64,000 bases of DNA from a bacterium (GTDB taxonomy: Bacteria; UBA8248): NCBI GenBank assembly GCA_965207065.1, contig OZ242260.1, positions 3,296,001 through 3,360,000 on the forward strand, read 5' to 3'. This document shows, one piece after another, positions 39,001 through 42,000 of this stretch; positions within the stretch are counted from its first letter, which is position 1; each line of letters opens with the position of its first letter. The position numbers are program-made.

Positions 39001-42000
39001 TTTGGCTGTGTGGTTGCAAAGACGACAACCCGATCCTGATCCCGTTGTCACCGATTGATGGGAGCATGGGTAATTTTCTGAGTCCGATAATGACCGGCGA
39101 ATTTCAAACACAAGGAGTGGGATGCAAAGGTATTTCCAAGTGTGATAATGTTTTCTGATAACAGCGAAAGTATATAGATTTTTGGTTTTGGATTTGTTCC
39201 CATATTGCGGGTTTGCCGCTTTATCATCTGAAAATGCCTTCGGGCTCATGAATCTCAAGGAGGATTATGTAATGAATCGCAGAGGCATGTTTCTTGTCGT
39301 CGCTATGGCCGTGGCAGGAGTTCTGTTGAGTGCATTTTCTGCCAGTGCGGCACCGTTCCGCATCGGCCACCATCGCTCTGTTATGGGAGCGGTCACCATC
39401 GTTGCTCATAAGATGGGCTATTATAATCAGACTATCGGCAAGGGAAAATACACCATTAAACAATTCGCTCAGGGGAAGTTGATGCGCCAGGCGATTTTGT
39501 CGAATTCACTGGATGTCGGCGGCGCCGCCGATCGTGCCTTTTATTCGGCGATATCAAAGAAAGCGAATGCACCTGGAATCGGAAATGCAAATTATTGGTG
39601 CAAGGCAAACAAGATTCTCACATCTCCAAAATCACCTGTGAAAACCTTGCATGACTTGAAGGGCAAAAGACTTGGCGTAGGTAAAGCTACTGGTACATAT
39701 TTCACGCTGACAACCTTCATTCTGCCGGAATATGGTTTAAGCGTGAATGACTTCACGACCGTGAACATGAACAATGATACCCGCATGGCGGCGCTTAAAT
39801 CCCGGACGGTGGATATGATAGCTTTGAACAACCCGCAAGCTGCCATAGCCATCGATAGGGGATATGCCCGCACAGTGGAAACTTTTTGTAAATATGCAAA
39901 CAACCTGTGGATAATCATGGCCAATGGAAAAACCCTCAAAAAAGGCAGAGATGTATATACGCAATTCTTGAGAGGATTCATTCGTGGCATGAAATTGCAC
40001 AGAGACAATCGCGATAAGTTTGCGCGTGTATACCTGAACCACTTGCAATCGAAAGGCTCAAAAATAAAGCTTAAAATAGTAAAAGCCTCTGTGAACGATC
40101 TGACTTTTGGCCTTCTCCCATCAGAGGCGGATTACAAATGGTTTGATCACATGGGCAAAGTTCTTCTGAAAAAACGTAAAGCGAAGAGAACAGTGGATCT
40201 TCGCAAGGAAGGCATGGATTTGAGCATGGTGAAAGAGGCCATGGCAGCAGAGGGTTGGAAAAACTAAGTCTTTTGATTAGAAAGCATAAAGAGCCGCGGC
40301 CAGCATCGGCCGCGGCTCTTTCTTTCTCTCGACTAGAAGTCAGCCCTGCACCCTTTCAATGCGCCCATCGGCAGGTGCAGAGTCTATACTCACGGTTGTT
40401 TTACGACCCGGATATAAGGCAGGGGTGACTCCCATCCTTCCGGGTATTTCTTCTTGGCATCCTCATCGGATACGGCCGGCAAAATGATCACGTCTCCACC
40501 TTGCTGCCAGTTTGCCGGAGTTGCCACCTGTTCACTGCTCGTCAACTGGCAGGAGTCCAGTAGTCTCAGGATTTCGCTGAAATTCCGGCCAGTGCTCATC
40601 GGATAGGTGAGTGTTGCCTTGATTTTCTTGTCCGGGCCGATAACGAACACCGAGCGGGCCGTCGCATTATCAGCGGCCGTCCGGCCTTCGGATGAGTCGC
40701 CCGAATCAGCCGGCAGCATGTCATAGGCTTTGACTACTTTAAGTCCAGGGTCGCCAATCAAGGGATAATTCACGGCATGGCCCTGTGAACTTTCGATGTC
40801 TTCCGACCATTTTTCATGATCGGAAACCCCGTCGACGCTGATGCCGATCACCTTGCAGTTTCTTTTGTCGAATTCGGATTTAAGTCCGGCCATGGTTCCG
40901 AGCTCAGTGGTGCAGACTGGAGTAAAGTCCTTTGGATGTGAAAACATTATAGCCCAACCCTCGCCAATCCATTCATGAAAATTGATGGGGCCTTGGGTTG
41001 TGTCTGCAGAAAAATCCGGAGCTTCATTATTGATTCTTAAAGCCATTGTCCTCTCCTTGCATAAAGAATTAGAGAAAACTACGAATTCCCGTGTGCTGGA
41101 TGTGAAAACGAAAGAACTAAGTGGCTGGGGGAGGAGGATTCGAACCTCCGTACCCAGATCCAGAGTCTGGTGTCCTGCCGCTAGACGATCCCCCAAAAAG
41201 ACCTAGATGTTTATATGTATGAGTTCTTTATTCGTCAAGGACGATACCGGAATCACGATTCATCGATTTTGGCCAATGCAGTGTTGAGTCGAAGGATAGT
41301 TCTGTCTTTCCCGAGAAGGCTGATCGTTTCAAAAATACCCGGACTGATGGTCCCACCCGTAATGGCGACGCGCACCGGTTGAGCCAGTTTGCCGAGCTTT
41401 ATTGTCTCTTCTTCCATAACTAGATGGAAAACTGATTTGACGTTTTCAGTTGAAAATGTCTCGATTTTGGTTAATTCATCCCGCAACTTCATTATCAAAC
41501 CCGAGTTTTCTGGATTTAAGAATTTTGAAGCGGCCTTCTCGTCAAACTCGATTTCATTTTCAAAGAAAAAACGAGCACCATCAATCATATCCGATATAGT
41601 TCTCGAGCGTGTTCTGAGCTCATTCACAATTCCCTTGCGTGTTCCGTGCGTCAGTAAATCTGGTAATAAGCCTCGCTCTTTAAGGCCTGTATCGAGCGAT
41701 TCGACAAGAAAATCGCCATCGGCCGATTTGATGTATTCCTGATTCAACCACAATAATTTCTCGGGATTAAAGATTGCGGCGGATCTGTTTAAATGTTCCA
41801 AAGAAAAGTTTTCGACGATCTCTTTTTTGGTGAAAATCTCCTGATCTCCATGACTCCAGCCGAGCCGAACGAGATAGTTGATCAGCGCTTCAGGGAGAAA
41901 CCCCCGGTCTCTATATTCCAGTACCGAATCTGCACCATGGCGCTTAGATAGTCTTTTTTTATCAGGTCCCAATATCATCGATATGTGTGCGAAATTTGGC

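Follow-up and report, generated by a model that had tools for sequence, protein, structure and literature searches.

The window analysed here is a 64,000-nucleotide stretch of a bacterial genome that forms one closed contig of 4,476,866 bp (4.48 Mb; GC 59.5%, stated completeness 96%). A tRNA-Gln gene and the gene for an aminoacyl-tRNA synthetase lie next to each other on its minus strand, where the elements are:

41122..41195, minus strand: tRNA-Gln(CUG) gene (ARAGORN; RF00005; model R1)
41161..41163, minus strand: anticodon CUG of this gene, with C34 at 41163 (G on the plus strand), U35 at 41162 and G36 at 41161 (ARAGORN and sequence)
41253..42665, minus strand: gltX, the sole GluRS/GlnRS-type synthetase gene of the genome (TIGR00464, 553.6 bits, cut-off 290)
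42717..42746, minus strand: promoter-like site upstream of gltX (consensus scan; three sites found against a shuffle mean of 2.5, which is not above shuffles)

The tRNA-Gln(CUG) gene is 74 nt long, encodes its CCA end and, as read from the sequence, begins with a U1-A72 pair. Its anticodon loop is C32-U33-C34-U35-G36-G37-A38, all five pairs of the anticodon stem (C27-G43 to A31-U39) are Watson-Crick pairs, and minimum-energy folding gives a cloverleaf whose anticodon stem is likewise 5 bp long. Infernal scores the gene at 61.1 bits with RF00005 (cut-off 29). R1, a tRNA-Gln model built for the present analysis, gives it 94.1 bits, and the next-best match in the whole genome is a tRNA-Asn at 71.9 bits. 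Seventeen other genomes of the genus carry exactly this sequence (100% identity). By its cloverleaf, its CUG anticodon and its U1-A72 pair, the gene is a member of the bacterial tRNA-Gln CUG isoacceptors. Editing of C34 to U, or a lysidine-type change of this base, would appear as G-to-A at position 41163 of the plus strand.

The gltX gene ends 58 nt upstream of the tRNA on the same strand, and its product is a non-discriminating-type GluRS. The PF00749 family has one match in this genome; within the phylum, whose 51 genomes are the same as those of the class, 49 genomes have one match each, and the gene that carries it adjoins tRNA-Gln(CUG) in every genome for which coordinates were compared. 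As the genome is without a GlnRS, Gln-tRNA would be made by the indirect route, in which GluRS is followed by an amidotransferase. A consensus scan found no terminator-like site between gltX and tRNA-Gln(CUG), and the two may therefore share a transcript. Ten of the 13 relatives' loci examined, L039 among them, have tRNA-Gln(CUG) in tandem with tRNA-Glu(CUC), an arrangement that Wald and Margalit describe as a tRNA operon; here, tRNA-Glu(CTC) is not in tandem and lies 49 kb away, at contig position 3288091.

ARAGORN finds 46 tRNA genes in the genome, of which one, with anticodon CTG, is for Gln; the Glu, Lys, Leu(UUR) and Arg(AGR) boxes retain both a U34 and a C34 gene. RF00005 has 45 matches above the cut-off in the whole genome plus one of 19 bits, which looks like the 3′ end of tmRNA. 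The preliminary description had named the CUG gene as the only tRNA-Gln gene, and ARAGORN, RF00005 and R1 agree on this. It had further stated that the genome holds neither a UUG gene nor a group I intron, which two more whole-genome searches bear out: the intron mode of ARAGORN makes 78 calls with no Gln(ttg) among them, and the group I intron model RF00028 has no match. The UUG gene was thus not found in the whole genome with ARAGORN, Infernal, R1, the intron mode or the group I intron search (a relaxed ARAGORN run, -ps80, returned 5,281 calls that are noise). When the UUG-type gene of the sister family (f4) served as the BLAST query, the matches in five out of five genomes were confined to the CTG gene and to T-arm fragments of other tRNAs. 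At the gene level, tRNA-Gln(UUG) is truly missing, from this genome as from most of the order.

Among the 44 genomes of the order, 36, all of them read at the sequence level, carry the CTG gene only, and eight single-contig (closed) genomes of different species are all CUG-only. In the sister family, both the UUG and the CUG gene are present in 7/7 genomes, just as had been stated before. Earlier it had also been claimed that none of the 44 genomes holds a UUG gene and that the trait is common to the whole order. The first claim stands for the 36 CUG-only genomes but not for three genomes of genus g11, which have a UUG gene (G033 and G034 beside a CTG gene; in G031 the TTG gene alone was found), and five draft genomes have no tRNA-Gln gene at all, gltX lying at or near a contig end in three of them. 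The second has to be given up, as g11 is nested within the window's own family (f1) in a 23-protein tree. The UUG gene of g11 had been invisible to the earlier BLAST search because the query was the sister-family gene. In the 5′ half and the D-arm, the TTG genes of g11 resemble the CTG genes of the order, whereas the TTG genes of f4 have a different D-arm; in G034 the TTG gene stands in tandem with the CTG gene, behind gltX. The tRNA-Gln(UUG) of g11 thus goes back to a CUG-type gene that was duplicated and altered in its anticodon. This genus also has the fewest CAA codons, at a GC3 of 0.94–0.96, which fits none of the readings discussed below.

The position from which the UUG gene disappeared can be recognized by gene order. 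In the three f4 genomes examined, the order is ispE-spoVG-tRNA-Gln(TTG)-prs. The ispE-prs spacer of the present genome (contig positions 3233737-3233964) contains no tRNA, nor does the same slot in G042, G045 and G033, and the slot is empty in four genera of f1. In family f3 (G020), it holds a decayed tRNA relic whose local alignment score of 44 compares with 17.9 ± 2.6 for shuffled sequences (0/1000 shuffles reach 44), and which gets 19 bits from R1, where an intact gene gets 94. The empty slot in f1 and the relic in f3 are direct evidence that the UUG gene was truly lost. The relic further suggests that the gene was lost more than once rather than in a single event at the base of the order, and that it was already dispensable before these repeated losses. 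The one contig of family f2 has just 272 bp ahead of prs; the 16 bases with which it opens match the 3′ end of a UUG-type gene at 15 of 16 positions, which is not significant. The f2 flank had no match in metagenome contigs, and a scan of them with the f2 Prs protein reached no more than 65% identity, so that no close relative turned up. Eighty metagenome loci with prs comprise 45 with tRNA-Gln(TTG) beside prs, 35 without tRNA-Gln and none with CTG alone.

The codon that this gene would read has remained in use. CAA accounts for 7,649 of 29,796 Gln codons (25.7%) in a genome-wide count over 3,399 ORFs from a crude ORF caller, which agrees with the earlier description of CAA as common (24%). 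In 38 rpo and ribosomal core genes, taken as orthologues aligned to eight relatives, its share is 55/296 (18.6%). Across these 38 genes, Q makes up 56–71% of the relatives' residues opposite CAA codons and 54–60% of those opposite CAG codons, and the earlier statement that CAA means Gln is upheld by this. The depletion of CAA that had been reported for conserved Gln sites is not seen in the same set: columns with Q in all relatives take up 25 of the 54 CAA codons and, for CAG, 92 of 238, although 38 genes are a small set and no genome-wide test. At the same invariant-Q sites, f4 uses CAA in 53 of 349 cases. Proteins of the present genome in which CAA encodes an invariant Gln include RpoB, RpoC, EF-G and SecY as well as ribosomal proteins. 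The core-gene share of 18.6%, at a GC3 of 0.756, is similar to the 20.9% of the f4 genome G021 at a GC3 of 0.757; relative to GAA/AAA, the CAA share is 0.48–0.70 in CUG-only genomes vs 0.71–1.05 in f4. Judging from these alignments and counts, CAA means Gln and is not avoided in core genes.

A factor that could allow a C34 tRNA to read CAA was sought in RNA contigs, enzyme families and the translation apparatus. Four (X1, X2, X4, X6) of the 17 RNA runs, all of which are stored as contigs, were examined: they have C34 only, with no other letter anywhere across the tRNA. Runs X1 to X3 are metatranscriptomes from size fractions. The contigs that bridge the anticodon are 435–2,367 nt long (precursor or DNA), with rare variants dropped, and at this length they carry no information on the mature tRNA. 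The earlier remark that no editing is seen in RNA contigs thus holds for C-to-U changes in these four runs, as weak evidence. As for enzymes, the single PF01171 match of the genome is a full TilS adjoining the CAT tRNA, and TiaS (PF08489) has no match in the genome. The order has no extra RsmB/F (NSUN) copy (PF01189: one match in 49/51 genomes, two in G025 and none in G043); as a second NSUN methyltransferase is lacking, an f5C34-type pathway was rejected as far as its methyltransferase step is concerned. PF00383 has four members in the genome: TadA, a RibD-like protein and two TadA-like proteins of 155–157 amino acids. Neither TadA-like paralog occurs in G001 or G007, which are closed and CUG-only, in the CUG-only genus g17 (genomes of 2.0–2.2 Mb), or in f2 and f3; for one of the two, f4 has counterparts with 76–77% identity. 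They were set aside as C34 editors, as their presence does not follow the CUG-only state. The statement in the preliminary description that there is no TilS or fitting deaminase paralog is accordingly right in that no extra TilS and no deaminase with a fitting distribution exist, but two TadA-like paralogs do exist. Ribosomal protein S12 shows no order-fixed difference from f4, S4 and S5 show only conservative ones, and GluRS is present in one copy throughout without correlation with UUG loss; all of these were rejected as causes. In the tRNA itself, the anticodon loop is identical in the CUG tRNAs of f4, which coexist with a UUG gene, and the sole order-wide change found concerns the topmost pair of the anticodon stem, C27-G43, which is U27-A43 in f4.

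Because the UUG gene is gone and CAA still means Gln, the remaining tRNA-Gln presumably reads CAA. We consider it likely that the ancestral tRNA-Gln(UUG) gene was lost and that the tRNA from the single CUG gene serves both Gln codons, CAG and CAA. We infer that C34 pairs with the A of CAA, a wobble pairing that the standard rules forbid. The ability to read CAA would precede the loss of the UUG gene, which, once dispensable, would have been lost more than once, and g11 later rebuilt a UUG tRNA from a CUG duplicate. Quite possibly, C34 would be changed post-transcriptionally in all or part of the tRNA pool by a new modification, by an existing enzyme of widened specificity or by C-to-U editing. 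It is almost as possible that an unassisted C:A pair is instead tuned by the tRNA body, C27-G43 being the order-wide change. The more specific proposal of a C34 chemistry new to bacteria—a wobble-cytidine modification or C-to-U editing, possibly by TadA or TilS with widened specificity—is doubtful though possible; one gene would then supply decoders for both CAG and CAA, and this ability would be older than the UUG losses. The points counted against decoding of CAA by the CUG tRNA are the C at position 34 in the RNA contigs, the lack of a candidate enzyme, the 5-bp stem, the loop shared with f4, the unchanged S12 and the CAA minimum of g11.

CAA could also be a "hungry" codon that is served well by no tRNA: near-cognate tRNAs (Gln-CUG, His, Lys, Glu) would decode it both slowly and ambiguously, which slow growers with one rRNA operon would tolerate. 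The genome does have a single rRNA-type Ile-Ala tRNA pair, which would mean one rRNA operon and slow growth, and this account is also in keeping with the lack of any enabling mechanism or enzyme, the somewhat lower CAA share relative to GAA/AAA in CUG-only genomes and the rebuilding of a UUG tRNA by one genus. It is nevertheless improbable, given that, in essential and highly expressed genes, CAA codons fall on invariant Gln sites as frequently as CAG codons do, that the genome uses CAA at such sites at least as much as f4 does, that thousands of CAA codons are spread over the genome and that the CAA share reaches an f4-like level at equal GC3.

The two other explanations question the absence itself. 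That a UUG-reading tRNA-Gln exists but was missed, being non-canonical, split, permuted or on an unbinned replicon, is very unlikely: eight single-contig genomes of different species agree, four detection methods and the group I intron search were negative, the ancestral slot contains nothing or a decayed remnant, and the f4 query returned nothing beyond the CTG gene and T-arm pieces. What speaks for it is that the genomes are metagenome-assembled, so that plasmids may escape, that the completeness of the present genome is 96% and that the f2 contig may begin inside a UUG-type gene. It is scarcely credible that the absence stems from errors of assembly or binning, or that the CAA count stems from wrong gene calls. 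The genome-wide codon count does come from a crude ORF caller, and five drafts are without tRNA-Gln, three of them with gltX at or near a contig end; but the closed genomes agree, the 38 genes are orthologues aligned to eight relatives, and what gene order shows does not depend on tRNA finders.

With the UUG gene lost and CAA still in use, this lineage departs from an established rule. In the literature, U34 tRNAs are called "mandatory" (Wald and Margalit 2014, PMC4041420), the target tRNAs are described as "nearly ubiquitous" (PMC6063277) and it is stated that none of the UNN anticodons was lost, apart from UAU (PMC8007984). The same papers hold the U34 tRNAs of split boxes to be mandatory because no other tRNA reads the A-ending codon by the wobble rules (PMC4041420, PMC6063277, PMC8007984). 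Here, the rule is broken in at least 36 species without tRNA-Gln(UUG), with eight closed genomes and with CAA kept in essential genes, and the latest exception to be proposed, in which tRNAs with an anticodon stem of 4 bp read by C:A pairing, does not cover the lineage. It thus offers a natural system for finding new wobble-cytidine chemistry or those traits of the tRNA body that make C:A pairing possible. Either outcome would matter for the prediction of decoding capacity from genomes, for measures of translational adaptation that are based on tRNA gene sets and for genetic code engineering. Furthermore, a dated sequence of loss and regain emerges from the empty slots, the f3 relic and the UUG gene that g11 rebuilt.

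Lysidine (made by TilS) and agmatidine (made by TiaS) are enzymatic changes of C34 in tRNA-Ile2(CAU), after which the base pairs with A only. To our knowledge, a change of this type is the only established bacterial route from a C34 gene to an A-ending codon. Unlike these systems, with their CAU anticodon and their reading of A only, the present genome has one TilS, beside the CAT tRNA, and no TiaS. In Micrococcus luteus, tRNAs were lost under GC pressure, and the codons concerned are unassigned and nearly absent; in Streptomyces, the bldA tRNA-Leu(UAA) is dispensable, and its codon is confined to non-essential genes. As in both of these, a U34 or A-reading tRNA has been lost or become dispensable in a GC-rich bacterium, but CAA here makes up about a quarter of the Gln codons and occurs in core genes. 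With shares of 25.7% genome-wide and 18.6% in core genes, an unassigned codon of the M. luteus type was rejected.

A close published counterpart is the proposal that C34 "superwobble" tRNAs with a 4-bp anticodon stem, in which 27 and 43 are unpaired, read the A-ending codon without a U34 partner, so that UNN becomes dispensable (2026, PMC13092985). According to that paper, genomes that have only the 5-bp stem form need the UNN tRNA (PMC13092985). The present case shares with it a C34 tRNA without a U34 isoacceptor of the same box, but differs in having five perfect anticodon-stem pairs, not four, and in concerning a sense-codon box (Gln) across most of an order, without stop-codon reassignment. 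In mitochondria, as PMC5041475 has it, tRNA-Met(CAU) reads AUA through f5C34 or, in squid, with an unmodified C34. One C34 tRNA there serves the G- and A-ending codons of a split box, as is proposed here; that case, however, is an organelle with its own ribosome, and ours is a free-living-type bacterium with 46 tRNA genes and no second NSUN. The regain in g11 also has precedents, since five cases of tRNA gain by anticodon mutation of a duplicated isoacceptor, the UUG/CUG Gln pair included, are given by Wald and Margalit (PMC4041420). The UUG tRNA of g11, with its CUG-gene backbone and its tandem position in G034, resembles those cases; but whereas they describe the gain of an auxiliary tRNA, the shift in g11 re-creates a "mandatory" tRNA after its loss.

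The genome is a single contig of 4,476,866 bp with a GC content of 59.5%, in which ARAGORN detects 46 tRNA genes, and glutamine is represented by a gene with the anticodon CTG alone:

Window 41122-41195, minus strand: tRNA-Gln(CTG), the only tRNA found in the window by ARAGORN.

Both genes are kept for the remaining purine-ending two-codon sets (Glu TTC and CTC, Lys TTT and CTT, Leu TAA and CAA, Arg TCT and CCT). Infernal RF00005 gives 45 matches over the cut-off plus one of 19 bits, which from its sequence we read as the tRNA-like 3′ end of tmRNA. A covariance model trained on 17 tRNA-Gln sequences representing the two isoacceptors (R1, alignment A1) finds one tRNA-Gln in this genome at 94.1 bits, the runner-up being tRNA-Asn at 71.9 bits. 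When introns as long as 3 kb are allowed, ARAGORN makes 78 calls (32 with predicted introns) but no Gln(ttg) call, and the genome contains no group I intron. A UUG tRNA gene hidden from all of these searches, which would supply the standard reader of CAA, is very unlikely.

Elsewhere in the gene set, tRNA-Arg(TCG) stands alongside tRNA-Arg(ACG) and tRNA-Arg(CCG) (contig 565306-565382 and 1593137-1593213, outside the window), so that the CGN set is more complete than is usually reported for bacteria. The anticodon loops of tRNA-Arg(ACG), CUACGGA, and tRNA-Gln(CUG), CUCUGGA, differ at positions 34 and 35 only. A tRNA-SeC gene at contig 690478-690574, also outside the window, makes it probable that this bacterium synthesises selenoproteins. 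Immediately downstream of tRNA-Gln, at window 40390-41053 on the minus strand, is a gene with its start near 41053; judged by eye from the N-terminal translation, its product resembles a peroxiredoxin. Owing to an upstream TTG, the ORF as listed (40390-41196) extends across the tRNA.

The model R1 was run on all 44 genomes of the order and on 7 genomes of the sister family f4, which together make up the 51 species genomes of the phylum. It separates tRNA-Gln (at least 84.8 bits) from other tRNAs (at most 74 bits; the lower tier, when checked, was Asn and Pro). All seven f4 genomes have two matches, one CTG and one TTG. Within the order, 36 of the 44 genomes carry a single CTG gene and nothing else, all read at sequence level (18 as 100% identical by BLAST, the others by ARAGORN), and eight of them are assembled as one contig. 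R1 matched no tRNA-Gln in five drafts with a completeness of 67-91%, three of which have gltX, the gene preceding tRNA-Gln, at or close to a contig end. The preliminary description had claimed that the UUG type is absent from the whole order, with 0/44 by BLAST. This holds for the 36 CTG-only genomes and fails for genus g11, whose TTG genes could not have been found with the f4-type query used.

In g11, one genome (G033) has a CTG and a TTG gene separated by 36 kb, another (G034) has them in the tandem order gltX-CTG-TTG, and in a third (G031) TTG is the only tRNA-Gln gene found. The 5′ half and D-arm of these TTG genes match the CTG genes of the order, and the D-arm is unlike that of f4 TTG genes. 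In a 23-protein phylogeny (4,038 columns, LG+G4, rooted on f4), g11 falls within family f1, to which the window belongs, and f3 outside it, with support of 100 for f1 and for the order. The g11 UUG tRNA was thus created anew, through a gene duplication followed by a C-to-T anticodon change. It was rebuilt in the genus with the fewest CAA codons (GC3 0.94-0.96), which none of the readings considered here accounts for.

In relatives, tRNA-Glu(CTC) follows tRNA-Gln(CTG) by 15-600 nt. The pair is split in the window's genus, where tRNA-Glu(CTC) lies at contig 3288091-3288165, 49 kb from window 41122-41195. In an outgroup genome (G029, L029:1029-1100), an ARAGORN call with a two-base anticodon beside tRNA-Glu(CTC) appears to be a second, damaged copy of that Glu gene.

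The ancestral position of the UUG gene can be traced. In three f4 genomes the TTG gene sits between ispE/spoVG and prs, and the genes flanking this slot are syntenic with contig 3,229,000-3,240,000 of the present genome. The relevant features are:

Contig 3233736: end of ispE.
Contig 3233965: start of prs.
L112:1793-1861 (G020, family f3), between spoVG and prs: decayed UUG-type tRNA-Gln relic.

The 228-bp spacer between ispE and prs (contig 3233737-3233964, locus L113), 62 kb upstream of the window start, is AT-rich (GC 0.43 versus 0.595 for the genome) and contains no tRNA, no tRNA remnant and no spoVG, which f4 and f3 have there; spoVG has no tblastn match anywhere in the genome. The slot is likewise empty in G042 (g14), G045 (g17) and G033 (g11). 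In G020, spoVG is retained, and a 70-nt stretch between it and prs can be aligned to the f4 TTG gene, acceptor stem through 3′ end, although the anticodon arm is destroyed. The local alignment score is 44, against 17.9 ± 2.6 in shuffles (0 of 1,000 reach 44), and in an alignment with four intact genes 37 columns show no variation; R1 gives 19 bits, compared to 94 for an intact gene, and ARAGORN calls no tRNA. This stretch is a pseudogene relic of tRNA-Gln(UUG) in the ancestral slot. Given that it is still recognisable while f1 and f3 ribosomal proteins are only 41-89% identical, inactivation before the f1-f3 split is hard to square with its state, and from this one f3 genome we infer that the UUG gene was lost at least twice. 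In an f2 draft (G019), the contig begins 272 bp before prs, and its first 16 bases resemble the 3′ end of the UUG-type tRNA at 15 of 16 positions, a likeness short of significance (118 of 1,000 shuffles score as high); no 5′ part of a UUG-type tRNA occurs elsewhere in this draft. Of 80 metagenome loci that contain a prs relative, 45 show tRNA-Gln(TTG) next to prs and the other 35 lack tRNA-Gln; CTG on its own occurs in none. This marks the slot as an ancient and broadly distributed site for the UUG gene. The loss of tRNA-Gln(UUG) is almost certainly real, and an artefact is extremely improbable.

CAA nevertheless remains in common use. A genome-wide count with a crude ORF caller of our own (3,399 ORFs, 77% of the genome) gives CAA 7,649 of 29,796 Gln codons (25.7%), with GAA and AAA at 41.4% and 40.6% of their respective codon pairs. 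In addition, 38 genes from the cluster that holds rpoBC and the ribosomal-protein genes were aligned to orthologues from eight relatives.

Glutamine codons in the 38-gene set.
CAA share of Gln codons, own genome: 55/296 (18.6%), GC3 0.756.
CAA share of Gln codons, f4: 20.9% (GC3 0.757), 18.9% (GC3 0.832), 25.7% (GC3 0.732).
Own Gln-codon sites aligning to Q in relatives: CAA 56-71%, CAG 54-60%.
Own codons at sites with Q in all relatives: CAA 25/54, CAG 92/238.
CAA use at invariant-Q sites: own genome 25/117, f4 53/349.

Because CAA aligns to Q and occupies invariant-Q sites, it means Gln and has not been purged from critical sites. The genome-wide depletion of CAA at conserved Gln sites given in the preliminary description does not show in this 38-gene set. 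The CAA share divided by the mean GAA/AAA share comes to 0.48-0.70 in CUG-only genomes and 0.71-1.05 in f4, a measure that depends on GAA/AAA variation. In the 38-gene set and the genome count no clear cost in codon usage is seen, and decoding of CAA appears cheap and faithful; poor, ambiguous decoding, towards which the lower ratio might point, is accordingly improbable.

With CAA codons common and conserved, the simplest account is that the product of the single tRNA-Gln(CUG) gene would read CAA as well, and we consider this probable. How it would do so is a more tentative matter. A chemical change of C34, the wobble base, is slightly favoured, since decoding appears cheap and faithful and since, among tRNAs with a canonical 5-bp anticodon stem outside mitochondria, the established routes by which a C34 gene reads A rely on a modified base. 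An unassisted C:A pair tuned by the tRNA body is possible and nearly as likely, in view of the negative enzyme searches, the small genomes of g17 and a C27-G43 change in the tRNA.

As to enzymes, the genome has one TilS, adjoining a CAT tRNA, and no TiaS; an RsmB/F-type methyltransferase is present once in nearly every one of the 51 genomes. Four CDA-fold proteins are encoded (TadA, a RibD-like protein and two TadA-like proteins), and the two TadA-like paralogs fail the distribution test as C34-editing deaminases. TadA-like paralogs number 6-13 in five of seven f4 genomes, several in tandem arrays, and 1-3 in most order genomes; two f4 genomes of genus g4 have one each. Examples from f4 are:

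G026:C1:4712460-4714616: TadA-like paralogs.
G024:C5:132063-134623: TadA-like paralogs, with a twin of this locus on C7.

In 49 of 51 genomes GluRS occurs as one copy and GlnRS is missing, and at every locus where coordinates were compared gltX is the immediate upstream neighbour of tRNA-Gln(CUG), in the order and f4 alike. In both orders Gln-tRNA must thus be formed indirectly, and their difference cannot be put down to charging. S12 has no order-fixed change. Contigs of four RNA runs have C at position 34, which is uninformative on the mature tRNA.

The tRNA-Gln(CUG) folds into a standard cloverleaf, and its anticodon loop is identical to that of f4 and outgroup CUG tRNAs. By our own reading of the distinct CTG sequences, C27-G43 is the sole feature fixed in all 12 from the order and absent from the four of f4 and three of the outgroup; f4 CTG genes have U27-A43 or U27-G43. 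The f4 TTG genes also have C27-G43, as did the lost UUG-type gene. Where published accounts treat the 27-43 pair, it is implicated in C:A wobble, and there it is opened, not strengthened.

Three papers (PMC4041420, PMC8007984, PMC6063277) describe the U34 tRNAs of these boxes as irreplaceable and as universal, or almost so, among bacteria. No report of a CUG-only bacterial lineage was found in the open-access literature searched, exclusive of Supplementary Fig. S7 of PMC13092985, which possibly lists such genomes. The reading of an A-ending codon by C34 is a known kind of decoding, of which the CUG-only lineage would be a new case. PMC13092985 proposes that tRNAs with a 4-bp anticodon stem read NNA via C:A pairing; the tRNA-Gln(CUG) described here, whose anticodon stem has five Watson-Crick pairs, falls outside that class.
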